This document shows positions 26,910 to 49,766 of a DNA stretch of 64,000 nt, piece by piece (position 1 is the stretch's first letter; the number at the start of each line of letters is the position of its first letter). The translations under genes and the position numbers were made by a program. The notes under the pieces were generated by a model. It did no database searches, was not told where the DNA came from, and saw only the letters and a program-made list of their open reading frames with translations. The DNA comes from a virus (lineage: Duplodnaviria > Caudoviricetes): IMG/VR virus record IMGVR_UViG_3300025154_001556. The stretch is one strand, 5' to 3'.

Positions 26910-29900
26910 TTAGCCTATATTCCTATTAGCATACACTAGTGTCATTAAACGTTTTAATTGCCCATCAATAGATGTTAGTTCAAACTTTAATTTACTAATG
27001 TCGGTCCTTTGCCTATTTATATAAGAGTCAATTAATTTTGAATTATTATTCAAAATATCTTTTTTAACTTCCGCAATTCGTACATTTATCTCAGCCTGTA
27101 CATCCTTTCCAAAAGATTCCTGTAAATTAGTTAACTTAGAATCTATTATGTGTATTTGTTCATCAGTTTGCTCTTTAACAAAAGCTATACTTTCTAATGC
27201 GGTATCTAAAATTGTACTATCAGCACCTACGGATTTAGTATTATTTATGGAGTCCGCCAGGTTCTTAAACATAGTTTCTAGATTAGATGTATCTAGTTTA
27301 ACGTTTGAAGAATCCAAAGATATCTTATCTGGTATACTACTTATTACAGAAGTTAGTTTATCAGTAATACCGTTATCGTCCAATTTAACATCAAATACTT
27401 TATCCTCTACTTTTAAGGGAGCTATATCAGCCAACTTTAACTCTTTGTCCTCTACACGTAATACTCTATCTTCTACCTGTAATTTTTTACTTTCATCCCA
27501 AGTAAGTGTAATACTTTTTTGTTGGGCATTAGTAATTGTATTGGTAGTAAGTTCACTATTAACAAGGCCACCATCAGCAAAGCGTCTTGGCAATACTACC
27601 TCACCTTTCTCTAAATAATGAGGACCAGTAGATCTCGTTACGCCGCCGTCATGCATAATAGGCATGAATCTTCCACCTTCAAGTTGCTTATTACCTTTAA
27701 AAGTGTCGCTTAAAAGATTACTATTTTCATCTAAATTACGTGTCTTTAAATAGTCCTCAATAATAGTTTTAACACGTGCGCTGTCACCTTCACTAATACT
27801 CTTAACGGCCAGAGCTCTAAATTCATTTGTTGTTAATAAACCCTCCAACTCTTTTGGCATGTTTTGTTTGGCTGCCAAATTACCGGCATAATTCCAAAAT
27901 GTGCCCTCATCAGTTTCACTAATTTTAGCACCGCCCATAGGCAACATTGCATCTAATTTACCAGTATCCCTAAGTCCTATAACCCTTCCTATATTGGAGG
28001 TTAAGGCTATACGATCCTCTACATCAGCAAGTACGTGTCTTAACGCCCGGAGCGCCGGACTGTTTTGTAATGTATTACCAGATGTAACTAATTTATCAAA
28101 TTTATTTAATGACTGTCTAGCTTGCCATACATATTCTTCCGGAAGATAGCCAGCATTAGGCTTACCTGTCTCTTTATCAATACCATGGGATAAGGCATTA
28201 CGCATGATAGTTGGATCTTCAAGATAATTTCTAAGTTGCTCTACTTCTGGATAAGCTGGGCCTGCTGCTGCGGTCATACTTGACATCTTAGCACCTTTAT
28301 ATAAGTAGTTAGGTGTAAAAGTCATAGTATTTGTTTGTTTTTCGGTGCCCACATCATTTGCTGCTAAACGTCTAACGTTTTCCTTTATATCTCGCGTGGC
28401 AGTAAAATACTCTTCGGCGGCGCCCACTCTTCCTGCATTGTAAGATTCACCAAAAGTAGTTTTTCTTTCTGCCATTTGAGTCATAAGTTGTTGTTCTTCA
28501 GAAGACACTCTTGAAGTAGTAGCTCCTAATAAGTCTTCAGTTTTAACTCCTTTTCTTAATTGTTCCTCTTCATTTAAAACTGAGGCCCTTGCTTTAGCCA
28601 GAGTTAATACCTCCTTCTCTGTAAACATGGGTATACTACCGCCGTCAGCCAGGTTATTTTCCTTCATGATGGCTTCTAGTTGTTTTCTGCGCTTGGTAAG
28701 GATGTCCTGTGCGCCGGACGCAGAAAACACGTTGCCGCCGTCAGCCAGGTTATTTTCCTTCATGATGGCTTCTAGTTGTTTTCTGCGCTTGGTAAGGATG
28801 TCCTGTGCGCCGGACGCAGAAAACACGTTGCCGCCGTCAGCCAGGCCTGGCATAATACCTTTTTTATTTATATAGTCCAGGGTATCATAACCAAGTTTCT
28901 GGGCCGCATGGGCGCGTATTACGTATTCTCCTGGACTAAGCATAGCCGGAACTTTATCCTCTCTTGGACCACCAGGACCTGTAATGTAACCCCCGCGAGC
29001 CTTAACAAGAGGTGTAGCAGCATCGACAGCAGTAGTCTCTGTCGGTTTATCCTTTAAAGCTTTATTTAACTCTTGTAGTTGAGTTGTATTATTATAAAGT
29101 GCCTCTATTTGTGCTTTAAAATAAGCGTCATCCGCTAAGTGTAGGTTCTCCAAATCAGGCAAATTCAGCGAGGGTTTTTCAAATAAATCACCACGTGATG
29201 CAGCATCCTTCTCTGCCTTAGTTAGTAGGTCATTGGTTTCTTTTAAAGACATGAGGTAGTCTGCTTTTGGGGCAGCAAAATTGTACCCTTCTACCCCAGC
29301 ACCAACTGCTAATGGGGCCGCAGTCAAAAGTGTTGCAGCCTGGGGCCCCATAAAAAATTCAGCAAGCAGGGCTATATCAGGTCCCATAGCAGCCAGAGCA
29401 GATGCACCTAAACTTAAAGTACCTTTTGAAACAAAATCCTTAGTTGGGGTATCTGTAAAAACAGATGGTTTATTACGCGCATTTTGACGTTCTTGTTCAC
29501 TAATAAACATGGCCTGTCCAGCTGCAAATTGGTTTATCCTTGCTTTTATTATTGGATCGTTAACATCAAAACCTTGTTGCTCAGCCATTTTTGTACCAAT
29601 AAATGTAGCTTTTTCTTTAACAGCTTTTTCTTGCGCTACACCAGGAGGAACTATATTAATATCCTTAATGGCAGCACCTACTGCCCTGCTGGTTAAATTA
29701 ACAATAGCATTGCCTAATGCATTGTTATATTCTACAAACTTTGGTATAACTCTACCTAATTCTATAACCAAATTCCCCGTAGGCACAGAAAGAGCATCCA
29801 AGGCTTTGTTAGCGGCCACTAAACCAGCCATAGAATTTTGTTCCACTTCACTTACATATTTTTGTACAGGCGATTGAAATTTTGCTGTTTCTAGGGTTGG

Positions 29901-32900
29901 AAGTAGTTTATCTGTTTCTCCAGGAGTTTTAAATAGCTGTCTTAACTCCGAGGAGGGAACGCCTAGTTTTTCAGCTAATGTTTCTAAGATCTTTTGTATG
30001 TTAATCAATTCTTTAACCACAGGATCAGAGTTCATTAGAGTTTTTTCAAGGTCATGTTGTATTCTTGCAAAGCCCTCTTTTACTTCTGGTGTTATTGCCA
30101 CCGCTCTGGTGCTTTCAGCCATACCACCAAATTGAGACATGTATCTCTGGTATTCTATGGTTCCTTCCCCATACTGGGCTTTGGCTTTTTCTTTTACTGC
30201 TCCAATAGTAGTTTCTGATTTTATGAAGGTCGCTTGAGAATTTTTAAGTTCCTCTAATTGTTTTAAAGACCCAGCATAGTAAGCTTTTGTGCCGGCATCT
30301 TCATTACCAAATGATATTCTTTCAATTAAAGTATCTTCCATGGAATTTATGGCATTAACCATAGTGTCTAAACCTTGAAATTGCTTAACCAAATCTTGTT
30401 CTTCACGTACCCTAGCCTTTTCCTGTGGCATATGGGTTATTTGGTCAATAACTTTCTGAAGATCATTACCTTTAAGATTGCCAGAAAATAGTTGTGTATA
30501 TAAATCAGCTGTTCTTATTTCAAATTCATCAGCAAATTTGCTTAAAGATATACCACCACCCATTAAAGCATCTATTTGCTGTGTAGGTGTGACCATTCTT
30601 TTAGCAAAAGGACCGCTAGCACCAACCAGGGAATCCATGGCCAATTTAAGATTTCTAGTACCTTCTAATCCGGCACTAAAACCCTGTACGCTTAAAGATT
30701 TAAAACTTTCATTAAATACGCGTAGACTTTTACCTGTATCAAACACGGTTTGCGTTATACTGCCTAAGGATTCCATACTATTTTTAAGGGTTTCGAAGTC
30801 TTCTGTTAAATCAGACGTCTCATCACTTAATTTTAATATTTCATCTTTATATGCCTTAGTTTGATTGGTCTCTTTATCGCCGGCATCTAACAGCTTTAAT
30901 CTGATATCTGTTATTAATTGCTCTCTATCTGCTATTTTTTTACTTACATTTTCTGTTAGAGCTTGTGCCGATTTTAGTTGATCTATCGTGTTTTTTGTAG
31001 TTCCTTGTGATGATTTAAAAAAGTATTCTTGATCACTTAATTCGGCGTCTTTACGTTTAAATTGCAAATCACCTCTAAAACCAGATAATTCAGGATTCAT
31101 GGCAGCAGTCATTGACGTTTTAGATTGAGAAATTGATCTAGTTATACTAGAAAAATCTTCAACTAATTCGGTATTAGCCCGTTCAGATCTAGCCTTCTTA
31201 AAGGTCCCTTCAATTATTACAGGCTCTAAATCTATTTTTATATTCTTTATTTTAGAAACTTGTCCTTTTATAGCATGTTCGTACTCGTCTATTAAAATAT
31301 CCACATTTTTAAACCGCTTCTTTTCTTTACTACTTAACCCTACTGTTTTATCCAAAGCGTCTAATTCTTGTTTTTCAATATAGAGTTCAGTAAGCTTAGA
31401 CTGCATAAGATCTGTTTTACTTTGGGCCTTTTCTAATGCTTTAAAAGAAGTTTCTGCCTTTTGGTATTTATTTATTGTAAATACTTTTTCAAGTTTAACA
31501 CCTTTTCTAGGATCTTGTATAGAAGCCAAACTATTTATAAAGGTGGCCACTGATTCAAAATTAAGGTCCTTAGCAAAAAAATCTAGATCAGTGAAAAGTC
31601 TTCCTAGATTAGTAAAAAAGTTTTTACCTACCTCTGAAAGATTTTTAGCTTTTGATACCAGCTCCTTATCTTTAAATAGCAGATATTGTTCTGTTGTCAT
31701 ATCCCGTGTACTTCTAACACCTAAGTCAACTTGGGGTGGATTATACTTACCTCCTAATAAACCACCAGGTTGAGGTACAGCGAAATTACTGGACCAAAAA
31801 GATGGCCTAACAAAACTTTTTACACCGTAAGTCATGGACTCTTCCACTAATTTACTAAACCTATTTTTAGCATTTGCTGTTATTTCTACATTGGATATAG
31901 CGGCAGCCATATCATTTAATTCCTTTTCTAATTCTTCAGCCATTTCAAGTTTAAGCATCTGTTCTTGCATATCAGCGGCCTGTTTGTTTATGACTTGCGC
32001 CTGCTGTTTATAGACTTCTTTCATATCTTTTATGGCTTGTTCCACTTTTTTCTTTTCAGCATCAACATCCAATACTTTGGATTTTACTTCTGTTCCTTGA
32101 AGTATTTTATCGGTTGTAGCATTTTTAATAGCCTGCTCATTAAGGGTATTAAATATTTTTTGTGCTGATGATGTGTTTTTCTGTATCAAATCCGCTATAA
32201 GGGTGGACTCAGCGGCAGATTTTTTAGAAGCTGTTGCTATCTCAGTAAGTTTTTCATTACTTTCGGCTAGATAACCTGCCATAGTAGCCGCAGCTGCTGT
32301 GGCTAGTACTTGTGCAGGTCTATTAATGTCTGGGTCTGTTATTGGGCCAGCAACAGCACCGCCTGTGGCGAAAGTTGGTAATTTGCCATATTCATTAATG
32401 TAGTCTAGCTTACTTTGACCCAAATGTTTGGCAGAGTCGGCCTTGATTATATATTCACCGTTACTCACCCTAGCTAATATATCGTCTGATGTACCAGTAC
32501 CTTCGCCCGCTATTGGACCGCCAGTAGCCATTTTAAAATTAACAGCATCTAATAATTTTTTTAAATCATCTGGTAAATTTAAAGTGGCCTCTTCACCCTT
32601 GCCTACTTTAATTTTAGACAAAGTAGTTACAGCTTTATGTACCTCAGGATATTTTTCCTTTAATACATCCAAAGCCATTTCCTCGGACCCTTTAAGTACA
32701 TCAGATAACTCAGGGTAATCTTTAAGTATATCATTAACTTTACGTAATAAATCGGCTTTGTTTTTAAGTTCGTCTTTGCTTTCTATCAAACTGTTTTTAA
32801 CGGCACCACCAGTAGCAAAACCTGTTAAATCTTCTGGATTATGTGTTTTACTGAATTTATCCAATCTGGCATAACCAGCGCGTCTAGCAGTTGCAGCATC

Positions 32901-35900
32901 TAGTACATACTCGTCTTTACTTAATTTTGCATTAATACTATCAGAAGTAGGAGTACCTTCACCAAACACTCTGCCGCCATCAGCGAAACCGTACTGTGTT
33001 TTATTTTTTTCATAGTCTTCATAAAAGTTTTTTTCAGCCCGTTTAAGTTTTATGGCCTGTGATAAAGAGGGTGCCTCACCAGTGTTTGCTACACCAGTGG
33101 CTACATCTTTTAACACTTTACCATAATTTTTAGTGGCCTCTGAAAGATCTGTTCCCAATAGTTTACTAAAAACTAATAAAGCAGCATAAGTGGCTACGGT
33201 ACCTGCACCTAGTTTCTTTATAGTGTCGTCCGCAAAGCCAAGACTTTTAGCAAATTCCATAATTGCTGTTTTTGACGCAGTCATAGTAGTAACAGCGCCA
33301 TATAAAGTAGCTTTTGCTGCGGTATCTTCTCTGGATGTAGTAAGTGTTTTTTCTTGTGTTTTTAGGTCTTCTATTAACCCTTTATTTTGATTAACAGCGG
33401 GCTTGGCTTCTTCTGCCGCGAGTTGTGCCCTTAATACTTGAAGCTGTTCATCTAATTTCTTAACTGTTGCGTTTTCGCCAGCTTTTTGAAAAGCGGAAGC
33501 AACACTGGCTGCGGCAGTGGCTTTCATTACAGTTTTATCATCAATAAACTGTGTTTGTTGATTTGCTGTTTGTAATTTATTTATGGCTTCCACATCTGCA
33601 GTGAACGTTGGTTTGTTTGGAACAGTTTTTAAACCAAACCACTTACTTTCTTCTGGTACGACATCCTTCATTTGTGTTACAAAATCACGGAAATCTAGAC
33701 CAGAAAACATTCGTTGAGAAGCTTCTGTTGCTGTGTAGTTTTTAGCACCAAAAACATTCTGGCTACCTATTTCTTTAAGTGTTCTATCTACCCCTAATTG
33801 AGATGTTAAATTTTTAGTCATAACATCTAGAACTTTATTGGCTTCTATCACCATATCGGAATTGCCGGTGGCTGACGCTCTATCGCGCATTTCAGCTACA
33901 CGCTCTAGTCCAGTTAGTAAATCTTGTGGTGAACTAGCAGACATATATTTTTCTAACTGTTTATCAAGTTCCCCTGGACTACCTAAAGCCATTAAAATGT
34001 CTTCAAGCTTAGTAACAGTATCCGCAGTATTAGTAGCTACCCTAGAGGTTTCTATTTTTAATTCAGCGTACCCTGTGTCACCTGTTCTAGCAACAGTTTC
34101 AGTAAAGTTTTGCATTTCGTCCTTAGTTAGCACAGAACCAAAGCCTTTTGATACAGCAGCTATGCTATCAAGTGCCACAAGAGCTTTATCGGAGGAGTAC
34201 ATGCCCTCTGACGCACCTTGTTTTTGTATATCTAATTCTTTTAGTTGAGCGGCTAAGTTTCTGTAATCCTCTGAGCCTATTAAAGTACGTTGTTGAACAG
34301 TCAGGTCTTTATACTTAGGCCCGCCCGTATCAAAAGTGTCTAATCCCTCAGATATACCTTTTAAATAACCTGTGGTGCCTTTAAATACTTCTTGACGGCT
34401 ACGTTCAACAGCTATGTTTTCTTCAATTGCTCTTTTGCCAGATTCAAATGTTTTAGTTAAATCGGCCAATACAGCTCTATATTGCATTACCACTTGATTA
34501 TTTTTTAATATAGTAGTTAGGTTTTCTAACTCTTTATATAAGTCATTAGCTATGGTAACACTGCCTTCATCCAAACCTTCTACTTTTAATTTATCTAAGT
34601 CCTCCATGTAACTTCTAAATTTAATCATAGGTTTAGCGTAATACTCTTCAAAATCTTTTTTCCATGATTTTTGGAATGGAGATTCACCAAAACCTTTGCC
34701 TGTAGAAGCGGTAGGAGTAAACCCTTTACCAGATTGTAGCAGAGTGGTTGTTGCTATGTCACTAAAAAAGCGCTCCCCTAAATCAAATTCCTTTTTGAAA
34801 TCTTTTGCAGATATGGCCCTAATACCCGCGCCGGCGCCGGCTACAAATTCATTAAGTATCTCTATTTTGTCTGTGATCTCATCTTGTATATGATTGGCAG
34901 GAAAGATGTTTTCAACTAATTGCTGCATGTCTTTATCAAAAGCACGCTCTTCCACTTTTAGTGTTTTTGTATTAAAGTATTGTGCAACCCACTCAAATAC
35001 ACCATCCGAGGTTTCTTTGAGTTTAACTATTGCTTGTTTGCCCGCCATATTATACTTTGCAGCCACGTCATCCATAAATAGTACTATATCGTTATTAAGC
35101 ACTTTACCTTGGCGTTCAAAAAGACCTGCGGACTCTAATTTACCCTTAGTTAATTCTTTTGTAAAATCTAATGATTTAGCAGAGGGCAGGGCACGCTGCA
35201 TAACAGTTTGCCCTAAAACATCCTGCCAATTAATTTTACCTTTAAGGCCGGCTATATTTAGTCTGGGTTCCATGTTAAGTATAACATCATACCCTTCTTT
35301 TAATCTGGGGTCAGCAAATATTTTAGCAATCTCATTTGGATCTAATCCCTTAGTATTAATGTTGCCTAATACATTACTAAATTCCTTATAAGTAGCCGCG
35401 TAATCATTTCTAAGCGCCTTTAATGTCTCTTGATATTTTTTAATATCTTTATCCACAGCAGAAGACATAGGCGATTTTGCTTTTATTGATAGCAAATTGT
35501 TTAACTGTGCGGTTACTTCAGCAATAGCTTTGGCGGGGGCCACTTTAATACCCTTAGCAAGCATTTCTCCTATAATAGGCACCTCACTCGCTATATCTTT
35601 AATCATTTTTTTAGTGTTTTCAGACCCACCTGTTTTGGTTAAATCCTCTATAAATTTGGAAGCCACGTCTACTTCCGATTCCGCCAGTTGTTTAGTTCTG
35701 GATTTATCCAGTACTTTAAAATACTCGTCAAAATTAGTGCTGGCTTTAAGCACCGCATTGCCTACTTTATCATAACCTAACACCAGGTTACTATTAGATT
35801 CTGCTAATTGATTTGCTAAACTTATTACATCTTCTTGTGCTCTACCTAATGTAATTATAGGAGCTTCATAAGTGTTTAAAGATTTTCTACGTTCTTTGGT

Positions 35901-38900
35901 GGCGGGATCATTTAATTTATTTAAATCCTCTATTTTGCTTTGTAAAACATCATAGGAAGCCGCCATATTTTTAATATTAGTAAGATTATCTTCTTGAATA
36001 CTACGCATACTATACATAGCATTTGCGTAATCTTGTGCAGATTGAGTCATCCTACCATATTGATCCCCTAGTACTTTTATTGCCGGTACTAATGCTGCTA
36101 TTGTGGTTAGTAATGGGGCAACCGCGGCTATAAAGGAAGTATCGTCCGTAGCTAAATTTTCAGTTAACTTTTTGCCTATATCACCGAGTGAATCACCAAA
36201 ACCTTTTACAGCCATACCTCCTAAATAGGAACCCATACCAGCTACTTCGGCGCCCATGGCCAAACCACCAGAAACTAATTTCTTTAGTGCTTGATGTATA
36301 CCCAGCTCTTTAACTGTTTTTTCTATGTCTTCTTTGGTCATACTATTACGTTTTCTAATAGTTTCAATAGTCTCCCCTATACCAGCGGTACTACTAAGTT
36401 TAGTCCCTACTGTTTTTCCGGCAGCCCCGAATGAGGCTATTCCTTTACCTGTGGTAGAAACACTATCAGCAACAAAACTATTAAATACTTTACCTACTTC
36501 TTGTAGTTTAAAGGACAACCTGCCAAAAGAGGAATGAAAATCTGATAATTTAGTCCCTCTGGTTACGTCAGTCTTTCCGCCACTAGCATCCGTAGTAGTA
36601 AATTTACCTAATGTTTTAAGACCGGCAGTGGCTAATTTACCGCCGCCTAAACCAAATAATTCATATTTAGTTTTAGCTAACTCTTTAGTAAATTGTTCTC
36701 CGGCCCCAGATATACCTAGAAAGTCCTTACCTCCAGCAAGCATGTCACCTAAGGATTCGGCTAGTTGCTGTCCCTTAGTCATATAGGTCAGTAAGGCCAC
36801 AAAAGCAGCGCCGGCCGCTTTGATAGGATCAGGTATAGCAGACAGTGTTTCTAAAAATGTTTTAACTCCACTTAAACCTATTTTAAATGCCGGCAAAGCT
36901 ACTTTACCGATAGACATCTGTAGTTCTACTAAAGCAACTTTGGTTTGTTCGAGCTGTTTTCTATAAGTACCCATTAATTCAGCATTACGTCTTTCTGCGG
37001 AGCCTTTGGAATTCATACTCTCTTTGGTGGCACGTAAAGCTTGATCCCAGTTATCCATTAAAGCTATGAGAGAGTTATATTGTCTGGTACCACCAAGTGC
37101 TTGGGAGGTAGCCAATTTTTGGGCGTTACTAAGGTCTTTCCATTTTTTGCTTAGATCATCTAAAACACTAAAACCAGATCTTAACTGTCCAGTAGATTCC
37201 ATGACAGGAATACCTAATTTACCCAGCTGCTCTGGCCCTTTTTCGGCAGAAAGTCTACGTAAAATAAATCTAAGAGAAGTACCTACTTCTTTACCTGATT
37301 GTCTTGTAGTTGAACCGATAGCGGCAACAATACCATTTAATTGATCAAAAGTAACACCAGCAATTTTGGCTGCCGAGGCGGACTTTTGAATAGCATTGGC
37401 TAAGTCACCAGCAGTAATAGCGCTCTTGGCTTCAACCTCACTCCAAGCATCTAAAAAGCGCATAGCACTATTACCTTCTTCTTGGTAAATTTTCATGGCT
37501 GATGTTAAAGCTTCAGTAGCTTCTGATGCTTTTAATGTAGTAACATTAGCAGCTAAGGTAGATACCTTAGTTCTATCTATTATTTCTGCTTGTGTTAAAC
37601 CTTGCTGTGCAAAAACATTCATAGATTGTAATACATCTGTTATACCAACACCATATTGTTTGGCGAAGGTAACCGCGGCCGCTGATAAACCATTTATATC
37701 AGAAGACAGAGGATTTAACATCATTTTAAGTGTGGCTAAACTATACTCTATTTCAGCTAAGGTACTAATAGCTTGTTTGAGTTGCGCAAAACCTCCGTAC
37801 ACTACGGTAGAAGCAGCACCCCATTTAACAGCACGCCCTATTGCACCTCTAAATCCGCTATTAGATCCTTGCATAGCGGAGGCTAAATCTCTTTCTTTTA
37901 TTGTTATGTCACTTAGTGATTTACCATACTTAGCAAAGTCCACCACAACATTACGAACAACCTGCCCAGTCTGATCCAGAACTTTGATAGGATAAGATCT
38001 AACCTCACCTACACGTGCACCACCAGATTCTTGAGGCTTCTCAAAATACTCTTTTACTTTTTCTACATTACTTGTGTGCATAGCCAGTTGCTCTTTCGGC
38101 GCTAACCATTTTGGAACTGGCACTGTGCCTGCCTCACCCCAGTCTTTATTGGCAGACTGGTTAATCATGGTGTATGAGTTCTCTACGGATTTTAAATACT
38201 TTATGACAGTCTCTAAATTCTTCTTTTGAGCTGCTCCAAAATCGTCCGTTAGATTATACTTCATGTAACGTTCAAGAGAAGCGCGGAGCCTACTTAATTT
38301 TTCAGCCAAAAGATCAAAATCCCAAGCATGCATAACATCAGAGCCCATCCTAGTTAGCATCTCGGCATTTTGCATCATGTCTATCATTTCTCTTTTAACA
38401 TTGGAACCAGTAATTGTAGATACAGCTGTACGTGCTTTTTCAACAGCAGGGGTCATCACACTGTCTTTTTGTAAATCACTTACTATATTTTCAAACATTG
38501 ATTGTAGTTGTTTATCATCACCTAATGGTGTTGTAGCCTTAGTAGCCAACTCACCTGGTGTTTGATAAACATTTAGTCTACGTGCCATTTCCGGCATTAC
38601 AAATTTTTTATCTTCTGTGTAAATGTCTGTTCTAGAACCAGCTACCCTACTAACAAACTTTCGCATTCTTGATATAGCGGATTGTGCCTTACCATAACTT
38701 GCGGTTTCCGCCTCAAAATCTTTTGAGGAGCTAGCCGCTTCGTAGGCCCTTTTTGCCTCCTTGGCTTGAGATAAGTAGTAATCTCCTTCCGCCATTCTAT
38801 ACAATTTCCAAGCTTTATTTAATTGCGCTCCTGCTCTACGTTCACCTTCAGGTCCACCTTGATCAGTGGCTAGCTGTTTAAATTTATCTGTTGCTTTTCT

Positions 38901-41900
38901 AAATCTATCCATATCTGGGCCAGTTTTACCTGTGCCTCTAATTATGTCGGATAAATCTTTACTTACTTTTTCGAGACTATTAAGCTCTTCTTCATAGTTG
39001 ATGTTACGAACTTGCCGTTGGAATTCTTTGGCGGCTGTATGGAATGTGGTGAAGTTCTCTAAATCGGCCCATACATCCTTACCAGCGGCTATTTTAGGGC
39101 TATATAATTTGTCTATATCACTAATTGAATCGGTTTCGTCAAGTTTAAAACCCTTAATTTTCTCTTCACTCTCTTTAGGTGTCATCGGTCTGTAAGAAGC
39201 AGCCCTTTGTCTACCGCCGCCAGCAGTTTTAACAGATTCAAAATGTTTTGAAGATTCATCTAACATTCTCTTTAAATCAGAAGCACTTATATTTAAAGGA
39301 CTAGCCTTCTTTGCGGCCTCCGTTTGTTCCTCTAAACTACCTGTGGTTCTAAATTTACCAGCAAACCTTCTAGCTTTAGCTACGGCATCCACATCTTTAG
39401 CTAATAAGGCTGGGTCTTGTTTAAATTTCACAACTTCAGGGGTATCTTCACCCTTACCCGTGCTACTATAATACTTAGCCTCGCCTTTAGTTGCACCAAT
39501 GGCTGTCATATAAACATTTAACTGTGATGCCACATCCAGTAATTTATATGCGGCCGCTAGACTGGGTTTGTCCCCTTTCTCAATGAGTTTGGCGTAAACT
39601 TCTGGGAAATCAGATGTACCGGAAGTTTGTATGGCTTCTCCAATAGCTTTTTTAACCCCCTCACCTACTGTCTTTATATCCATAGGATATTTTTCACCAG
39701 TAGTTTCATCTTTCATTACAACATCTATATGCCCGGTTATAGGGCCAGACTTTGTGGTTAAAGCCACAAATTGTTCTATGGCAGCTGTGGGGTCCATAGA
39801 TATTATATCTTTTTGTATTTTAGCATGTATGGCTTGACCAACAAGAGCAGAGGCTTCTAAGAAGTCATTAGGAATGTTGTCACTTTCTCCACGCATTGCT
39901 GACACTATGGCAGCTATCTGACGACTATTTAATTCTTTTTCAGAGAAGTCTTCTTTTTTAAACCCACTCTTATAGGAACCGCCGCCGGCTAAAGCACTGG
40001 CTCTATATATTGTTGCATATGTTGCACCGCTAAGCTCATTGTGGCCACCTGTTATTTGGGCAGACCATTTTTTAAGCTGTTCTACATCGATAGCAGGCTC
40101 AGTAGTTGTCTGAGTTTTAGCTTGTGGGGTGTCTCCTACAAATAAACCTATACCAGCAGCAATGCTTTGTAGATGAACATTTAAAGCACCGCCAGTAAAA
40201 GTAAATGGTCCCCCTGGAACACCAGCACCCGGTGTTGTTATACCAGGGGTAGCCGGGGGCGGGGGCCCTCCTGCAGACCCGTAAATACCGGCTTCCATTA
40301 TAGGAGAAGATACTTTAGCCGCCTCTATACCTGCGGTGGAACGATATGTTGTTCCCCTAACTTTACCTGAGGAGACAGGGGGTAACATAGTAGCCACATC
40401 CATACCAGAGGCACTAGAAGTTTTAAATACTTTTAAAGCTCTATCTAGTGAATATAAGGCCTTCATTTTTTCTGAAAATACGTCTACATATGCATCTACT
40501 TTGGTTTGTAGTTCTTCGGGAGTTAAGCCTTGATCTTTAAATTTAGTTTCAGCCATCTTACTAAGTTCGCTTTTACCTAGTAGCTCTATTTCTTGTAGCA
40601 CTGACGGCTCTACTACTGGCAGCCCCGCTAGTGTAGTATAATAGTCTACAACATCACGCATACGCATTAAATCTTTAGCTGAGGATCTATCTTTAAATAC
40701 TTGCGTATGTATTGGAGACATTGTGGCTAAGTCACCCGTGGTTAATTCAGTAAGCTTACCAATACTATCTTGTATTGATTTAATATCCAGAGGTTCGTAA
40801 TTAGCAATAGCTGCAGTTACAGCTTGCACGTCTTTCTGTGAATTTTTTAATCTATCGGCAGAAGTCTTTACCAATTCACCGTAAGCACCAGAACCAGATA
40901 CCTCATATAACTGATTAAGCTCATCTTCCAAATTAGATGCGGTAGCTACTGCCTTTGCCATACTAGACGAGTATCTAGCTTCTTCTTTTTTACCATAAGC
41001 ACCTGGCTGTAATTTAGATATACCCACATCTAAATCTAACGCGCCTTTACCATGCTTACTGATATAAGCACCCATTTGGCTTTCTGTACTAGCGCCGGCG
41101 GTTCTAAATTTATATAATGGTGCTTCTTTACTAGTTATTAGGCTTGAAGCTACCGCAGATGGACTTGATTCTTTTAATCTTCTGGCATATTCTTCTTTGG
41201 CTGCCGCTTTAAGGGTGTCAGGAGACATTCCTTGGCCCTTATTAGCGGCTATTTGTTTCTGTAATGTATCCAGAGCCGAATTTATAATAGACTGCTCTAA
41301 ACGCGTTAGAAAGCCTCTAAAACCCATCTTGTCTACCATCTCAGCAGTAAATTTATCTATATCAGATAAGTCAGCAGTTACACCATAAGCGGTTGCCATA
41401 CTTTTAACATCATCCGCCATCCCTTTGGACAACATGCTATGTATTCTATCTGTTATAGCTTGAGCATCTGCCTTAACAAAATCTTTAAGATCTTCGTAGT
41501 CTTTATTATTTAAAATGTTTTTATATACTTTTTCTCCGCCACCAGGTTCCATTATATCTCTGGTTATATCCGAGGACACAGAAGCGGCGCCGGCATGTTT
41601 AACGTCCATACCTTTCTGTAAGCTAAATCGGGTTAGCTCATTCATTCTAGCTTGTTCGTCCCTAGAGAATTTCTGATCGCCCTTAGCACCTATTAAGCTG
41701 GATTCCCCAGATACATCTTTATTGTAAGAAAGACTTAAGCGTGTAAAAGCCTCTGTTTCAGGGCCTGTATGAATTTTAAATAACTGCGCGGCCACAGCTG
41801 ACTTAGTTCTCTCATTTGCCAAAGAGGCACCTGTTTGAAATTTAAATGATTTTTTAAATTTATCATCTAAGGTCTCTATTACTGCCGCAACTTTATCTGC

Positions 41901-44900
41901 GTTATTTTTTAATTCGTCCGCATTACTAAGATCTTTTATGTTAGTCACAGCCGCTTCTAACTTGTCAGCATCTGTTTTATCGAGTAAGTTGCTTATTTGT
42001 TCAAGTACTTTATTTAAATCCTTGGAATCTCCGGCTAAAGCCTGCATCTGTTCGGATAAAGATAAGAAACCCATATCTTCCGTAGCAAAAGGTTTCTGCA
42101 TAAAACTGAAACCTTTTTCTGTTGGAAATTTTTTAGCAAAAGACTCTCCCATCTCTGCTAAGGTATATTCCGATGCTGGGGGCTGCACCGCGCCATAAGT
42201 AAACTGATCTCTAAATACTGATGCTGTATCAGATAAATCCTGAGTTAAGGTATCATAATGTTTTTTAATATCCCCTCTGGCTTTAACATTAATAGCAGAG
42301 TGAATTTCTATGGCGTCACCGTCAAAATCTAGTTTTTGTTGATGTGCTATATACTTAGGTAATAAATTGGATATAGCGGCATTAAGCTTATCAATTAAAT
42401 CTGTTAATTTTTCTAGCTTCTCTGGTGAGGCTGCGGCGCCTTTACTTAACTCACCGGCACGTTTGGTGGATAGATCTTCCCGCTGTTTAGTCATTCTTTG
42501 AATAACGCCAGATAAAGCATCCATCGGTAGATTGGGCATACCAGGAACAGCCAATACATTACTAGCCATACCTCCTTTACCTTCATCTAGTAGTCTAGCT
42601 TTATAGGGCTGTATTGAAGATGTACCTGTAAAAGGATAACGAAGGCTCTCTATATAAGGAGCTAGCTCTTCTTCTATGTATTTTTTTATAGTGGCTTTTT
42701 CTTCCGCTGTGCTCCCTTTACCCTGCAGATCTTGGGTGTAACGCAGCATGTCTAATAGAGTACCTTCTACCTTAGTAGCTGGAGCAGCCTCGCCTTCTTT
42801 TGTAAATTTCTTGGTGAAGGACACAGGTATCTTTCTGGCTATTTCCGCAGGGACACCGATCTCATGCTGACCCAATACTGGAAGACCTAACTCACTTGTA
42901 CGTTTTAGACGCTTGCTATGTTTTTCTTTTATAGATTGTGTTTGTTCCTGCAGTGATTTTAAAGATTTAATACTTTTTTCTGATATCCCCATCTCTTGTT
43001 GCATTTCTGGTGATAGGCCCTCTAGATCACCTATGATGGCGGACATCTGTGTATCAAATGTTTCTAGATCTTTTGTCTTATCAACAGTAGCAGAAACAGC
43101 CTTAGCCATGACAGCTGGTATTTTTCTAGTAAATAAAGTTTCTGCAACAGAACCACTTTTACCTAAGGTAGTTTCAGCCAAAGTCTCTAAATAATTTATT
43201 TTAGCTTTTTGGACAGCAGCAAGTTTATTATTCATCTCTTGTTCTAACATGCCCTTACCGCCAGAAAAATCTTTACTAATGGTATTTAGTTGCTCAAGTA
43301 AGTTACCTTTTGGATCTACTTTAAATGGTACTTTACCTTCGCTCAATTGTCCTGAAACTGTGGCGCCGGCATGTCTAAGAGCTTTAAGTATGGCGTTGTA
43401 TCTTTTTTCGGCATAGTTAGCTTGGGATTGAACAACACCTTCCATAGAACTAGCGTAGGACTTATCCATAGATGCGGACAAATCATCGTTTATATTCTTT
43501 TTAAATGTTATCCACATTTGTTCTAATTCTTTTACATATTTAGGATCATAGGTGGATAGCCTGCCCCCTTTCACTCTTATGTCACTAGTGGTGGACAACA
43601 CAGAAGATTTAAGCATTCCCGCAGCAGCTTCTTTCATAACTGCTTCCGCTGTTTTACGTGAATCTACATTTTTAGCCATATAGTACTGTTCAGTGTTGGT
43701 TACAAAATCTTGGTAGTCCTTAGCGGAGTTTATTAAGTTTTGTAATACACGTGTAGGCTCTTCGGGACCAAATTCCCCGGCTACTAAGGGCTCAGGATAA
43801 ACACCGCGGCCAGCAGGGGACGGGACATAGAAGTCCTCAAACGCTGTGGGCTTTTGACCAAGTTTGGCTTTAGAAGCATCAGATGATGGTAATTGTAGCA
43901 TAAAGGGCTTGTTGAATTTCTCAACATCCATAACAGTTCCCAACATACTACGCTTACCTTTATCCAGTGTTCCTGTAGAATAGTCAAAAGATTTTAATTC
44001 ATCTACCGATACTTTTTCTAACTTATTTCTTAAAGCTCCTAAAACCTCAGAGTCTTTATTAGTATTGGCTATTAGGGTCTTTATGTATTCCCAATGTTTT
44101 TTATCGGTATCACTTAGCTGTTCTACAAGTTCTGCTTGACTACCAGCACCCTGAATTGGTGTCTGGTTTATTTCCTTCATCAATTCCGAATCTTTACCAA
44201 AAACATTTAGATAGGCTGTATAAGCTGGGACATTAAGCTTTGCACCTTTTATACGTTTACGCACATCAGTGGTAGACCATGCCTCGGTAGCGGTAGGCTC
44301 CTCCACTACCTGTAAGAATTTTTGACCGACAAGACTCTTACGTTTTTCTCCAAACTCGTCTATAATTTCTGTATAAAAATTAGACATCTCCTCAAGAGCG
44401 GCGCCACGTTTTGCCATTACAGCTGCTTGATCAGACTTCTTACCACGTTGCATAAAGATTTTTGTTAAAGCTTCCTCTGCCTTTCCTGGGTCGGTACCCT
44501 TAAAACCCAAAGCGGAACTGTATGTAGATAAGGATTCTTTACCACTACCGAGTAATTTTTTATACATATCGGGGGCGAACTTATCCCGTAACGTTGTGTA
44601 GGCCTCATCTTTTTCTGATGCTTTTTGGACATTAGCAACGTTATTAAGTATGGTCTCTAATACCTCTGTCTGTAAACCACGTTTACCAGCACCTAAGGAA
44701 CTTATTCTAACATCAATTGGTTTTAGTTCATACAAACCACCTTCTTTAATCATACTACTATATGTTTGTTTCAGGTTATTTATACCATCAACACCATCGG
44801 TTATGGCTATACCAATTGAACTAAATAGCTCCTTGGCTTTATTATAGATATCTTGTTGGACAGAAGCCTCTTCTGGAATAGTTAAACCTGATGTAGCATC

Positions 44901-47900
44901 TTTAAAATACTCTATCATAAACTTATTACCAGAGTTTATGAGTTGTGATTTTAGCCCTTCTACTTCTGATTGAGAAGCACCTGCTGCTGTAAGCCCTTCT
45001 ATTTGACTATCTAACAATTCAGCTGCTAACTGCCCCATACTTTTAGGCATTTTGGCAGTACCTAAACCAGCGTTTACCTGCTCTTCACTAGTAAGTACTT
45101 TTATGTTTTTATCACCCCAAGTTTTAAGAATGTCTGACATTTTAGATGTGTCAGTAGAGGTCATAGACACACCCTTCGATCCAAAACGTGTGGTAAACTT
45201 TCTACCAAAGTGATTCATAAAAACTTCGGCAACTTTCGCTGCTTGCACTTCTACATTCTCAGAACGTACTGTTGCCATGGCTTTTTGTACTTCTGTAATA
45301 AAAGCTTTGTCTGCGCGTCCTTTATAGGTATTACTAACTCCTAACATATCCTGAAACTGGCTATATACTTTATTAATAGCCTCAGGAGAATCTACATCTT
45401 TTAACACCCCAGGCTTAACATCTGATACCGCCTCTGTGCCTTTACCCGAACTTAACTCTTTTCCCAGCATCCTACCGCCGGCTGCGGGTAAAACTAATGT
45501 TTTTGTTAAAGAGGTAACAGCATCAGCAAGTTTACCAGATACAAGTATTTGATCTTCAAACGTGCCGGCAGTGTGGCGTAATTCAGCAGTGACGTTAAAA
45601 CCATAACCTTTCTCACCGTAACGGCCACCTTCGATTAAAGATTTTTCACGCTCTGTTCTTAATGTTGGTGTTGTAGTACCAATCCCTTTTACACGGGCTA
45701 CATCAAATTTATCTGTAAGGCCGTTTATTTCATCAATAGAAGAGGACATAGCGTTAGTAACACCCGCTATATTACGTCCTAATTGTTGAAATTCACCAAA
45801 AGGGGCCATGCTTGTTAAGTCATCAACAAACATCTTTATATTAGTTCCACCAAGTGCTTTTAAGTAAGATAGCCCTTCTTCGTAATCTTTATTATCCTCG
45901 TCGGCTCCTCTTACTTTATTAGATTTAAGGTAAGCTATGGAACTAGCCTGAGACTCGGGTATACCTAAGGAGGATAGTTTTCTTCCTTGTGTAGGCAGTT
46001 CTTGTAACCGTTTAACAATAGGACCAGATTCCGGAGATTCTGCCGCCAATTTAGCGAGCATGTCCCTTTCAGCGTACATTTCCTTAAAACGTAGGTTTAA
46101 ATCTTTAATATAATTTTTATGTTCTTCAGGTTTTAATTCATAATCCCTTTCAGTAGGATATAAACCTGGTGTACCTCTGGAAAGAAGATTAACCACATTA
46201 GATTGCTGTAAACCACGACGTGGTTTACCGGGCTCTATTAGCGGCATCAGTTGTTCTACTTGTTTTGTAGCTGATTCAAAGCCCCTGGCACCACTCTGGT
46301 ATGCTGGTTTTTCTACCAACTTTTTTAGCGGGTCTGCTAAGACCTTACCATAGATATCATATATGTTTTTAAATTCTACTTTATCTAAGGCCTTTGCAAA
46401 ATCATATGCTGACACTTGTGCGGTGTTCATCATATTAACAAAAGACATGATCTGCGTTTTAAGATCTTTGTTGGGGTCAAGGGTAAACTGATCTATCTGA
46501 TTAGTAATGTTGGTTAATGCAGGTAATATGTCTAAATCAGGATCTATACGTTTTTTCTGCACCATTTTGGAAACAGTGGCTGCTTTGTACCCTTCTTTGA
46601 TGCCGGAGAATTCTTTAATAACACGTGCATATTCAGTTGATGCAGGTGCACCCTGTTTAAAAGTGCTTATATCAGCTAGCAATTTAGTTACTAAATCTGA
46701 TACAGCATTTTGTTCTAAGCGTGTTTGGGGATTAACACCAATAGTTTGTATTTTAGAAGCATAGTCTTCTTCGCGGCTTAATGTGCCGGCCTGTAGTGCC
46801 TTACTGTACAGCTTTTCCAGCCCTGTTTCAAACATTGCAAATTTAGATAAAGCACGTTCTGAGCCATGAGCGGTTTCCAAAATAGGGGTACCGGAAGGAG
46901 TCATCCTAGCCGCAGGTAGTGCCACATTACGGATATAAGGGGCTGGATGTTCTTTTCTTGTAGTGTCCACATCAGATAAACTTCTGTTGACCTCAGCTAC
47001 CGCGTATGTTTGTCTAGTAAGTTGTGTTAGTGGCCCTAATTGACTACCAACAGCTTTTTTTACACCTTCAACTAAATTAACAGTGCCTTTGGATGTTTCA
47101 TAAGCCGTTTTAAGATCAAGAAGTGCTTTTTTAATTTCAGGATCTGCCACGGTTGTCCAACCAGCTATATTTTCTTTCGACGCGGACTTCATCCACGTAG
47201 CTACTTTACTAGCCAGTAACTCCGCATTTTCATCAGCACTACCGCCATGAGTTACATTTGCCATTAACTTATCTAACTGCAGCTCTTTAAAGGCAGAAAC
47301 TATTTGATTTGGATCACCCGTAGCAGTTCTTTTGTTTTTTGTAAGTTCTCTTTGCATAGATTTTACATCCGCTATCTGCATGGTCCACATTTTAGCGTTT
47401 GTTTGATTTAAGCTATTACTTACATTTGTAAAATATTTGCTACTTTCAGGAGCTCCGGGCATTTCTAAAGGCTTCCAATCAGATTTACCTAATTGCTCAG
47501 TAACCGTGTTAGTAATATCTTTTAGTAATGCATTTAATGAGCTGGAAAGCTGTCTCTCCATAGCATGGACGTCGAGGGAAGCTCTGGAAGCGGAGATACC
47601 TTTAAGAATACCTTGCACAGAATCAGCCATCTGATCTTTTGCGGTAGCTACTTTATCGAACTCCTGTTTTATATTATCAGCACTATAACCACCTACTGCT
47701 GGTTTTATTACTTTAGATCCATAAACAGCTTTTTGTTCTGATGTACTACCGATCGCTTTAATTCTGCTAATATTTGCTGCCGGTGTGGTAGGAGCTTTGG
47801 CGCCGACATTAGTAGCAACTTTTGTAGTTGGTGCAGCCAACACAGTGTGTTTAGTACTATCAGCTAATTTAGTTAAAGACGCAGCTACTTCGGCTACATT

Positions 47901-49766
47901 ACGCTCTAAGGCTTCAAACTTGCTACTTAAATCTTCTGTTTTTATAGCCCTAACCTTAGTTACTAAATTATCAGCAATTTGAGATCCGGCCTTGGCTTGA
48001 CTTACCATTGAGGCCTCAGTTGTATTTTGTAGCTCATCAATCAAAGATCGCAGGGCGGCAATCTCACTGGATGCTTTTTTTACTTCTGGGCTATTAAAAG
48101 AACTCGTCCTTAAGGTCTTATTTATAGATTCAGTTTTAACACTTAAAGATTCTGTAAGAACCCCTTTTAATGATTCTAAATTCTTTTTTAAAGTAGATAT
48201 AGCTTGTTTATAATTATTAAAATAGCCACTTAAAGCTTTGGCAGCCTCGTCGGCGTTTAAATCAAGCAGCACGTCTAATTTAACGTTATCTGGAAATTTA
48301 GAAGTTATTAAACGTTCAATGTTTTCTAACTTAGGGGCTATTACTATCTCAGCAGCACCTGATGAAATTTCCTTAATTACAGAATTAAGTTCTTTTTTAA
48401 CATCCGCAGTGTCTATTGTAACATCTAGGGTGGCGGCTTTATCTATAATATCAAGTAGTGTAGTTATTTCCTTAAGTTTTTTATTAAGTGTTGTAGCTAC
48501 ACCTATCTTAATATCTCTATCTTTTACTAGAGTATCTATGTCTTTTTCAGCTAATTTAGTATCGGCAGAAACTTGGACAGTTACTTTACTGTTAGAAGCA
48601 TTTATTATAGAATCAATTGTTTTTCTAAATGCTTTATCATCAACATCTACTGATAGTACCAACTTTTCAGAAAGTTTATTGAGTCTAGTAATTATTTCTT
48701 TATCATTAAGGGCTACATCTATTTGTTGCTTAGACTTTTTAGTAGCTGTTTCTAGATATTTTATGTTGCTGGTAGATCCACCAGATTTTAAAAGTTTAGG
48801 TAAGTCTTCTAGTGCTTTACTTACAGCACGTAACTCAGAAAGTGTACTAACTAAAACTTTATCTGTTTGTTTAGAAGGCTCTTTACTAATTATACTTGTT
48901 TTCTTTGCAGCGGATAAAGTAACCAAACCTTTTTCTACTGATTTAGATATGGCTGAGGCCAACGCATACGTATCGATACCGCTAGCAGCAGAAGAGCGTT
49001 GTTTTGTAGTTTCTTCTTTTACGGCTTTTTTTATTTGATCTAGTTCTTTTATAATGTCAGAACTAGCAGCTGGTGAAGCCTCTACTGCTTTGGATAATTT
49101 TGTTAGTCCGGAAGTAAGTTGTTTAATCTCTGAATATAATTTTGATAGTCCAGCACTTACTTCTTTTACATTTGATGTATCTTTGGTTGTTGTAACAGTA
49201 GTTTTGTAGGAATTATCTACGCTCTTGGCTAACCCTTCTATGGCTGTTTGTAACTTAGTTAATTTACCAAAGTCAGTTGATGCAGGATCTTTTTTAATGG
49301 CAGTAAGGATAGAGGTATTGAGATCTTTTATACTTTTGTCTATGGCAGTTTTATCTGATTTACCTGATATGGCGCCTAATACTTTTGTTAGCGCACCTAA
49401 TTCTTTTGTTATAATTGATTCTAATGCCTTAGTATCTAATGTAGTTGTAGGTTTACCCGAAGACGTGGTTCCGCCTGCAGTGATACTTCGTTGAAATTCT
49501 TTGGCTATTGTTTTGGAAATATTATCTGCAAGGATCTTTGCTTGCTGGGCAGTATCTTTTGTAGCAGTGCTTGACTGAGCTTTACCATACGCATCATTTA
49601 GCCCATCCTTTATTGCTTTTTTAACAGAAGACGCTAATCTATCGGTTAACCCATTAAATGCTTTTGCTAATGTGCTATCTAAGGTAGAAGCTATATTGTC
49701 GGCCTTATTGCTTCCTGAACTTGATCCACTTATTATATGAGATACTGTGATGTCGTGCTTAGCCAA
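26910..49766 (-). CDS. Giant tape measure polyprotein (7618 aa) containing two-barrel RNA polymerase, PD-(D/E)XK nuclease and TP901-type TMP core
   Basis: Uninterrupted 22.9-kb ORF with TTG start and GGAGG RBS; canonical position after tail tube and chaperone genes; domain motifs listed as separate features. Confidence 0.92.
   Translation of the reverse strand: [7618 protein letters not shown]
28639..28845. repeat. Perfect in-frame 96-bp tandem duplication (about 2.2 copies) in the TMP gene
   Basis: ccgccgtcagccagg recurs at 28639, 28735 and 28831; unit encodes [32 protein letters not shown]; 50 of 96 bases are G/C. Confidence 0.95.
36900..37870 (-). other. TP901-family (PhageMin_Tail-like) tape-measure core, about aa 3970-4290
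   Basis: [23 protein letters not shown]...[11 protein letters not shown]...[23 protein letters not shown]...[15 protein letters not shown]...[18 protein letters not shown]; hydrophobic segments follow. Confidence 0.9.
39450..40010 (-). other. PD-(D/E)XK nuclease domain (RecB/PDDEXK_1-like) within the TMP, about aa 3250-3440
   Basis: YRASAL, GQAIH3314, E3331, GHID3348, D3363-I-K3365-T, Q3415-LNV-Y3419, in the expected order. Confidence 0.8.
41550..45800 (-). other. Two-barrel (double-psi) RNA polymerase region within the TMP, beta-like then beta'-like, about aa 1320-2740
   Basis: FE1404D1405; GRK1523FTTRFGSK1531GV; [23 protein letters not shown]; R2376YP; D2480FDGD2484 at 42315-42329; Q2717KGM2720DVKH2724. 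Confidence 0.88.

Follow-up and report, generated by a model that had tools for sequence, protein, structure and literature searches.

A probable bridge helix and trigger loop in a single-chain RNA polymerase embedded in a giant phage tape measure protein

The DNA analyzed here, referred to below as the window, is the 64,000-nucleotide stretch of the virus record IMGVR_UViG_3300025154_001556 from IMG/VR (Duplodnaviria; Caudoviricetes). Its minus strand carries an uninterrupted, stop-free open reading frame (ORF) of 7,618 amino acids (aa), as seen in the ORF list and the translation, which encodes a tail tape measure protein. We conclude that window 41560–41830, which spans residues ~2646–2735 of this protein, probably holds two mobile elements, the bridge helix and the trigger loop, of a DNA-dependent RNA polymerase that is competent for catalysis. 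This enzyme would be a single-chain polymerase of the two-barrel type, and it occupies residues ~1320–2770 of the tape measure protein (Table 1).

Arrangement and Conservation of the Catalytic Motifs

The motifs of the two-barrel polymerase are collinear and spread over residues ~1320 to 2770. The beta side shows TFEDQILVSGK (from residue 1401) and GRKFTTRFGSKGV (from residue 1521). The beta' side shows, in order, LGKSGSV...RKIPAV (~2200), LRYPFTGTSS (~2375), and KLDFDGD, followed by the candidate bridge helix and trigger loop. The bridge-helix segment is AVAAQLFK2664IHTGPET (AVAAQLFKIHTGPET, residues 2657–2671, window 41754–41798, minus strand), and the trigger-loop segment is Q2717-K-G-M2720-D-V-K-H2724 (window 41595–41618, minus strand). 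The original prediction had named these two segments together with DFDGD and had taken them as signs of an active enzyme rather than a relic. Their residues and spacings are as it gave them, and all three lie in one minus-strand ORF. In the beta-like half, K1523 and K1531 may be the equivalents of beta K1065 and K1073, which they resemble by motif and spacing alone.

A word-indexed search for homologues gave 44 proteins of 5,800–8,000 aa, all of which carry PF10145 (44/44) and keep D[FY]DGD (44/44). An exhaustive profile search was then made over 1.84 billion representative proteins with the beta'-like half (A1, residues 2180–2810) as the query. It returned 110 representatives, nearly all of them giant tape measure proteins or contig-end fragments thereof; the very distant proteins of 4,100–5,600 aa among them align around the barrel only. 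The polymerase and the tape measure domain are fused in one polypeptide in ~78 full-size homologues (4,004–7,998 aa), as they are here. There are 26 related loci in IMG/VR, on contigs up to 269 kb, and tblastn of the polymerase module gave no match in 50,697 GenBank phage records.

D[FYH]DGD is present in every homologue that covers the site. The sole variant of D[FY]DGD is DHDGD in P0056, a protein from the profile search; phage phiFa also carries DHDGD (Chaban et al., Supplementary Data 4, PMC10770324). The trigger-loop segment is also well kept in the close members (n=77). Residues Q2717, G2719, and K2723 are found in 77/77, D2721 and G2726 in 76/77, and A2725 in 75/77. Position 2720 is Met in 68 proteins and Leu in 9, which mirrors bacterial M932 and Pol II L1081. 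Position 2724 is His in 74, Leu in two (P0035 and P0037), and Lys in one (P0087, GMDTKKGG), the last of which mirrors K1045 of gp96, the polymerase–tape measure protein of phage P23-45 (see below). The conservation of Gln, Met, His, and DFDGD across homologues, which the original prediction had named as its check, is borne out by these counts. A further 13 distant members retain [QN]-x-x-[M/L/I]-x-x-K-H-[G/T], for example, INQALKTKHGG, INAGMTVKHGS, and INKSLAQKHGG. The consensus for the family is [QN]xx[ML]xxKH[GA]G, a pattern found in ~90 homologues.

Among the 622 ten-residue windows of the 631-residue alignment A1 (mean conservation 0.48), QKGMDVKHAG ranks first, above the DFDGD window (0.914). 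The bridge-helix core AAQLFKIHTG ranks fourth among non-overlapping windows. Residues K2664, G2668, and E2672 are invariant in the bridge-helix block, as are N2709, E2710, R2713, K2723, and G2726 in the trigger-loop block. The polymerase is also under purifying selection. The ratio of nonsynonymous to synonymous substitution rates (dN/dS) against a 94%-identical IMG/VR relative (L003) is 0.023 for the polymerase and 0.016 for residues 2635–2760.

A chance match for QKGMDVKH was ruled out. The pattern Q-x2-M-x3-H occurs once in the protein; the composition of the protein predicts 0.049 occurrences over its whole length and 0.002 in the 300-aa window after DFDGD. An expectation of 0.05 per protein stands against a position conserved across ~90 proteins. 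The match is far beyond chance because all of the close homologues (77/77) have the motif at an equivalent place, as do 13 distant ones if its form is relaxed.

The distance from DFDGD to Q2717 is 237 aa, as compared with 469 aa in E. coli beta' (D460 to Q929) and 259 aa in gp96 (D779 to Q1038). From DFDGD to the bridge-helix Gln there are 181 aa here and 188 aa in gp96, and from the bridge helix to the trigger-loop Gln 56 aa here and 71 aa in gp96. Within the family, 185 to 295 aa separate DFDGD from the trigger loop; in the distant tape measure proteins of 4,000–5,000 aa, only 134–143 aa do. The short distance noted in the original prediction therefore stands. Its explanation, that intervening beta' domains were deleted, does not: the enzyme is better described as a compact single-chain polymerase like gp96, with no sign of a recently trimmed beta'. 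A weakly conserved helical stretch of low model confidence lies between the beta'-like barrel and the bridge helix (residues ~2560–2650, window ~41820–42090, minus strand). This stretch is missing from the distant tape measure polymerases of 4,000–5,000 aa. Since the distance from DxDGD to the trigger loop is only 134–143 aa in those relatives, it appears to be a lineage-specific insertion.

Predicted Structure and Fold Comparison

We modeled A1 with AlphaFold2 (model residue i is protein residue i+2179). The model has a mean predicted local distance difference test score (pLDDT) of 75.7 and a predicted template modeling score (pTM) of 0.68; the barrel scores ~90. DFDGD falls at model residues 301–305. 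Beyond it, a long helix (456–485) is kinked at HTGP and then continues (490–506), and this is the predicted bridge helix. A helix formed by model residues 520–541 stops exactly at M2720. It is followed by a low-confidence loop (542–550, containing D-V-K-H-A-G) and a second helix (551–559). In the model, this helix-loop-helix around M2720 looks like an open trigger loop.

Foldseek searches of the PDB and BFVD with the A1 model gave RNA polymerase largest subunits as all of the top matches, which were weak (best E 4e-3). VIA-align matched the model to RNA polymerase largest subunits and to designed or natural domains of the double-psi beta-barrel (DPBB) fold. The best structural matches are the beta'/Rpb1 largest subunits (Z 12–14, 210–250 residues), with the similarity taking in the DFDGD barrel, the trigger helices, and what lies between. 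Human Pol I A190 (7ob9_A) scored Z 14.0 with 238 residues aligned (model 14–586), and M. tuberculosis beta' scored Z 12.0 with 230 (model 13–586). The vaccinia and African swine fever virus (ASFV) polymerases scored Z ~12, with 243 and 251 residues aligned, respectively. The non-virion polymerases of phages AR9 and phiKZ scored lower (Z 10–10.7, 127–130 aligned), as did gp96 (8h2m_A; Z 8.8, 193 aligned, model 36–576 to chain 611–1086).

The match to E. coli beta' is the most informative for the trigger loop. For chain 8pdy_J (Z 13.9), model residues 14–548 align with beta' 334–935. The last aligned beta' residue, 935, faces model residue 548, and H2724 is model residue 545. As the alignment ends at beta' 935, it ends within the N-terminal trigger helix. 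With other E. coli beta' chains the alignment runs to ~1250, over the SI3 insertion and into the second trigger helix. From where these alignments end or continue, the QKGMDVKH segment is predicted to superpose on the beta' trigger loop at its tip and N-terminal arm, with a register uncertainty of ~±4 residues. The structural check that the original prediction had called for is in agreement with it at this resolution. The alignment of the model with largest subunits takes in the DFDGD barrel as well as the helices of the bridge helix and trigger loop, and neither this comparison nor the conservation counts refuted the prediction. Taken with the conservation, this fold match supports a probably active enzyme over a relic.

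The same comparison bears on the specificity of the enzyme. The module could have another template or product and be an RNA-dependent RNA polymerase of the QDE-1/RDR2 type, a primase-like starter of phage DNA replication, or a PolD-like DNA polymerase. The two-barrel fold is indeed common to the eukaryotic RNAi polymerases (ZmRDR2, Z 7.6) and PolD, and a PD-(D/E)XK nuclease lies just downstream in the same protein. DNA-dependent polymerases match far more strongly, though, with Z values of 12–14 against 7.6 for RDR2. QDE-1 and PolD, as well as gp66, are not among the best 50 VIA-align matches; for QDE-1 and PolD this speaks for DNA dependence, with the limit that such an absence is not evidence that the folds differ. 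Trigger loops of the Q..M/L...H form are characteristic of DNA-dependent multisubunit polymerases. Functionally, the nearest analogue is gp96, which transcribes pre-early genes from a DNA template (PMC10770324). We therefore consider a specificity other than that of a DNA-dependent RNA polymerase to be very unlikely.

Relationship to gp96 and Other Polymerases

In gp96, the N-terminal part forms a virion polymerase that is active, has no clamp, and is fused to a tape measure protein (Chaban 2024, Nat Commun 15:317, PMC10770324; PDB 8h2m, 8h2n). In the published structure-based alignment (Supplementary Figure 9, PMC10770324), its bridge helix comprises residues 960–986 (...ALAAGQLTTSFLGLSEK...). 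Its trigger loop comprises residues 1027–1049 (...LLYQIITDRKKRDYS) and is aligned to Thermus beta' ...GTQLTMRTFHTGG, such that QIITDRKK of gp96 stands opposite QLTMRTFH of Thermus beta'. By this alignment, Q1038/T1041/D1042/K1045 of gp96 correspond to Q/M/R/H of beta'.

The polymerase described here resembles gp96 in several respects. Both are single-chain polymerases of the two-barrel type (predicted here) with DFDGD within one giant tape measure polypeptide, and both have a short stretch between DFDGD and the trigger loop. They share a bridge-helix block of the form [A/G]-Q-L ... G (AAGQLTTSFLG in gp96, AAQLFKIHTG here) and a trigger-loop arm of the form Q-x2-[T/M]-D-x-K-[K/H]. They differ in that no sequence similarity is detectable outside DFDGD. 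The polymerase is N-terminal in gp96 (327–1124) and internal here (1320–2770), and the inter-barrel connector is short and disordered in gp96, whereas here it comprises ~650 aa (1541–2190) and is partly conserved. The trigger loop of gp96 has Thr and Lys where Met and His are found here. A metallopeptidase is present in gp96; here, a PD-(D/E)XK nuclease follows the polymerase. Finally, gp96 comes from an 84-kb Thermus siphovirus and the present protein from an uncultured phage.

A MAFFT alignment of the window protein, distant members, and gp96 connects the two families through the bridge helix. The block K-x3-G-x2-TE-x3-R aligns with the crystallographic bridge helix of gp96, which backs the original prediction of a bridge helix at AVAAQLFKIHTGPET. 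Residue G974 of gp96 shares the one invariant column with G2668, and FLGLSEK of gp96 falls in the invariant K-x3-G-x2-TE column of the family, where the distant proteins P0098 and P0106 read PFLGLSTE. The series is graded, from KIHTGPETEAFTRL in the window protein through KIDVGMATESITRI, KTGLGESTEAISRL, and KPFLGLSTETANQL to TSFLGLSEKLAQDL in gp96.

Profile comparisons outside this block gave weak links. A1 matched E. coli beta' by hhalign only at beta' 455–480, on NADFDGD (E 0.0064, weak). For alignment A3, which holds the beta-like motifs, the best match to full-length E. coli beta was at 791–824 (NFEDSILVSE; E 0.092, weak). A1 matched gp96 with an E of 0.053, with low probability and confined to DFDGD and what follows, and A3 gave nothing relevant with gp96. 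A phmmer search of the PDB sequences with residues 1500–3300 found no polymerase and nothing relevant, and a protein atlas feature search returned only hypothetical clusters (scores ≤0.80). The family would act like gp96, yet by these comparisons it lies outside the Thermus_gp96 sequence family.

In E. coli beta', the bridge helix comprises residues 769–805 and the trigger loop 913–942 (Q929, M932, H936); the Pol II equivalents of the latter three are Q1078, L1081, and H1085. The protein described here shares with beta'/Rpb1 the Q-x2-[M/L]-x3-H-x-G pattern, including the natural M/L alternation, as well as DFDGD and a conserved His five residues past its last Asp (H2489, H310 of A1). In contrast to beta'/Rpb1, it consists of one chain in which the beta-like barrel lies upstream, has no separate alpha or omega subunits, shows half the spacing between DFDGD and the trigger loop, and is fused to a virion structural protein. 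The position of beta' R933 is taken by an Asp (D2721).

This Asp corresponds to that of the V-D-x-x-K motif in the trigger-loop arm of single-chain enzymes. YonO (SPbeta), gp66 of phi14:2 (a crAss-like phage), N. crassa QDE-1, and gp64 of P23-45 each carry a pair of DPBB domains on a single chain and are either encoded by phages or derived from them, and gp66 is, in addition, a virion-delivered polymerase inside a very large protein. None of these four keeps the cellular Met/His pair and none is fused to a tape measure protein, and for YonO "no detectable homology" with the trigger loop is reported (PMC5467207). Q2717, M2720, D2721, and H2724 fit both patterns: their Gln, Met, and His are those of cellular enzymes, and their Asp is that of the V-D-x-x-K motif in gp96, gp64, QDE-1, and gp66.

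Proposed Mechanism and Points Against It

By analogy to P23-45 gp96, the tape measure protein would be packaged within the tail and expelled into the host envelope upon infection; packaging and delivery of the polymerase with the virion are likewise suggested by gp96. The polymerase module would then transcribe the first phage genes during DNA entry. DFDGD would bind the catalytic Mg2+, and K1523 and K1531 of the beta-like barrel the substrate. The kinked helix around AAQLFKIHTG would be the bridge helix and adjoin the template and the RNA 3' end. The helix-loop-helix around QKGMDVKHAG would be the mobile trigger loop, which shuts on the incoming nucleoside triphosphate. M2720 may form a stack with the base in the way of beta' M932 and Pol II L1081, and H2724 may contact the phosphates, as beta' H936 does; K1045 may do so in gp96. 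The equivalence of Q2717/M2720/H2724 with Q929/M932/H936 is suggested by the motif and its collinearity rather than by residue-level superposition.

Several observations weigh against the assignment of a bridge helix and trigger loop in a working polymerase. No Pfam RNA polymerase domain was detected in residues 1200–3600 at E 0.01. The isolated bridge-helix/trigger-loop block gave hhalign E values of 0.85 against beta' 735–945 and 0.33 against gp96 930–1124, and both matches were misplaced; sequence statistics by themselves therefore cannot prove the assignment. A phmmer search with residues 1–1250 of gp96 found no meaningful match in all 128 proteins collected. AlphaFold may also favor cellular polymerases, of which many structures have been solved. 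The register is ambiguous by ~±4 residues, that is, one helical turn: the MAFFT alignment with gp96 is offset from the motif-based register by ~+4 and the end of the 8pdy alignment by ~–4. The His gives way to Leu in P0035 and P0037 and is hence not an absolute requirement. The example of YonO shows that fast two-barrel polymerases need not have a recognizable trigger loop (PMC5467207). The beta-like barrel region (1300–1720), when modeled alone, reached a pLDDT of only 55.9 and a pTM of 0.39, and the barrel was not formed. The flanking tape measure segments show similarly low dN/dS against L003, with a synonymous rate (dS) of ~1.2, which is near saturation.

Part of this list would be accounted for if the polymerase were active and QKGMDVKH were not a catalytic trigger loop of the cellular type. 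The segment would then be conserved for folding, for contact with DNA or RNA, or for packing in the tail tube, and its match to Q929/M932/H936 would be coincidental or offset by a helical turn. The ambiguous register, the lack of a significant hhalign match of the block to beta', the two His-to-Leu proteins, and the activity of YonO are all in keeping with this. In addition, gp96, gp64, QDE-1, and gp66 have V/T-D-x-x-K at this place and not M...H, and only the N-terminal arm of the trigger loop is structurally conserved (PMC10770324). What argues for a catalytic trigger loop is that QKGMDVKHAG is the most conserved ten-residue segment of the beta'-like half, above even the metal-binding site. 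Where Met and His are replaced by Leu and Lys, the substitutions are the alternatives used by Pol II (L1081) and gp96 (K1045). The modeled helix ends at M2720 and gives way to a low-confidence loop, as in an open trigger loop, and the collinear place after the bridge helix agrees with all solved two-barrel polymerases. A non-catalytic role for the segment is thus unlikely, though it deserves more weight than the other alternatives.

Two of the points would suit a dead relic that serves as structural or length-setting filler of the tape measure protein. The dN/dS is low along the whole tape measure protein and not in the polymerase alone, and the beta-like barrel does not fold confidently by itself. 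Against this, homologues of 25–40% overall identity show little or no change in the Asp triad, the beta-like Lys pair, the bridge helix, or the trigger loop, and the catalytic motifs are kept even in distant tape measure proteins of 4,000–5,600 aa. Conservation peaks exactly on the catalytic motifs and the linkers vary freely, a distribution that filler would not keep. The only characterized polymerase fused to a tape measure protein is active (PMC10770324). The chance that the module is a relic is, in our estimation, very small.

A complex was also predicted between the beta-like barrel (1354–1564) and the beta'-like half (2180–2789). Its score of 0.01 is not evidence either way. Because the beta-like barrel did not model alone and this prediction gave no verdict, the completeness of the two-barrel core is suggested by the conserved beta-like motifs (FEDQI and KFTTRFGSKG), which are found in 74/78 full-size members. 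In two of the homologues, P0043 (7,100 aa, DFDGD at residue 765) and P0122 (4,119 aa, DFDGD at residue 269), the ORF starts inside or after the inter-barrel connector, such that it does not include the beta-like barrel. These cases reflect either a polymerase made as two polypeptides or truncated gene calls.

Novelty and Implications

The principle of a virion polymerase fused to a tape measure protein is known from P23-45 and close Thermus-phage relatives (PMC10770324). In the literature library that we searched, no other paper combines a tape measure protein and a virion polymerase. The present family is a second lineage of such fusions with no detectable sequence similarity to the first, and it has ~110 cluster representatives in 1.84 billion proteins, from large uncultured phages. 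What is new, first, is that the bridge helix and trigger loop are borne out and that no other part of the enzyme is as constrained. Also new is the graded bridge-helix motif, which appears to tie the family to gp96 despite the lack of detectable overall sequence similarity. The third new element is the trigger-loop signature of Gln, Met, and His, apparently of the cellular type, which is without counterpart in gp96, gp64, QDE-1, and gp66; YonO shows no recognizable trigger loop.

It is conceivable, if rather doubtful, that no other known two-barrel polymerase that is single-chain and virion-delivered keeps a trigger loop of the cellular type, and that this one also has the bridge-helix block and trigger-loop Asp found in the clade of gp96, gp64, QDE-1, and gp66. 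Its catalysis would then depend on the trigger loop, and it would be an evolutionary intermediate that links the cellular multisubunit polymerases to the single-chain phage and RNAi polymerases. Such an enzyme would have fidelity control and perhaps intrinsic RNA cleavage, which YonO lacks. At the positions of the trigger-loop Met and His, every other characterized single-chain two-barrel polymerase has different residues or nothing recognizable, and the family thereby offers a compact natural system in which to ask how much of trigger-loop function (rate, fidelity, and proofreading) is ancestral to two-barrel polymerases. That the mobile catalytic elements are the most conserved part suggests that phages have repeatedly adopted the strategy of sending in a working transcriptase along with the tail "ruler". 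The finding also bears on the passage of a 1,400-residue enzyme through the tail tube.

Other Features of the Window

The coordinates of the polymerase and of the other domains of the tape measure protein are collected in Table 1.

Table 1. Features of the tape measure protein and their positions in the window.
Feature	Window position	Strand	Evidence
Giant ORF P0001, tail tape measure protein with internal RNA polymerase and nuclease domain	26910..49766	-	PF10145 E 5e-28; PHROG tape-measure families E down to 9e-73
Single-chain two-barrel RNA polymerase module, residues ~1320-2770 (probable)	41457..45809	-	Block conserved in 44 homologues; beta-like and beta'-like motifs; fold-search matches are RNA polymerases
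Predicted beta-like barrel motif FEDQI (1403-1407), cf. E. coli beta NFEDSI	45546..45560	-	E1404, D1405, Q1406 invariant in alignment A3
Predicted beta-like barrel Lys pair KFTTRFGSKG (K1523, K1531), cf. E. coli beta K1065/K1073 in GDKMAGRHGNKG	45171..45200	-	K1523, R1527, K1531, G1532 invariant in alignment A3; motif retained in distant members
Beta'-like double-psi beta-barrel (DPBB-A), residues ~2195-2500	42267..43184	-	Model residues 39-310, pLDDT ~90
Metal-binding D2480-F-D-G-D2484 (putative)	42315..42329	-	Motif located in translation; invariant DxDGD in homologues
Bridge helix, residues 2635-2685 (probable)	41712..41864	-	Model helices 456-485 and 490-506, kink at HTGP
Bridge-helix conserved core AAQLFKIHTG, 2659-2668	41763-41792	-	Conservation 0.836
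Trigger loop, residues 2699-2738 (probable)	41553..41672	-	Helix 2699-2720, flexible tip 2721-2729, helix 2730-2738
Trigger-loop conserved core QKGMDVKHAG, 2717-2726	41589-41618	-	Conservation 0.966
PD-(D/E)XK / Cas4-like nuclease domain, residues 3304-3369	39660..39857	-	phrog_1706 E 1e-7
Tape measure core domain PF10145, residues ~4030-4226	37089..37679	-	Pfam E 5.3e-28 and PHROG

The Cas4-like nuclease sits downstream of the polymerase and before the tape measure core in the same protein. A Pro/Gly-rich low-complexity linker (GGPPPPATPGITTPGAGVPGGPF..., residues ~3200–3255, window ~40000–40170, minus strand) separates the polymerase's C-terminal region from the nuclease and could be a flexible hinge or a processing site. 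A Pfam search of the protein in six overlapping pieces found only PF10145 and one match of the coiled-coil type. PHROG tape-measure families match residues 3950–4750, 5590–5900, and ~6900–7000.

The tape measure part is repetitive. A motif of the type [A/F][A/T]DGG / ATGG ... GxGTxTSDSIxAxLSxGEYV recurs at residues 5595, 5651, 5747, 5800, 6976, 7008, 7040, and 7397. These copies (window ~32358–32984, 28638–28841, and 27567–27578, minus strand) match the tape-measure families phrog_3547, 25241, and 6090. Near the C-terminus, a 32-aa unit (ADGGNVFSASGAQDILTKRRKQLEAIMKENNL, 96 nt) is duplicated exactly in tandem (residues 6976–7039, window 28650–28841, minus strand), which looks like a recent change in the length of the tape measure "ruler".

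For 18 of the 20 neighboring ORFs there is no PHROG match at E 1e-3, and the two matches obtained are to homing/HNH endonucleases. An HNH endonuclease ORF lies at window 19897–20796, and an ORF for a homing endonuclease of the GIY-YIG type lies at window 57015–57758, both on the minus strand.

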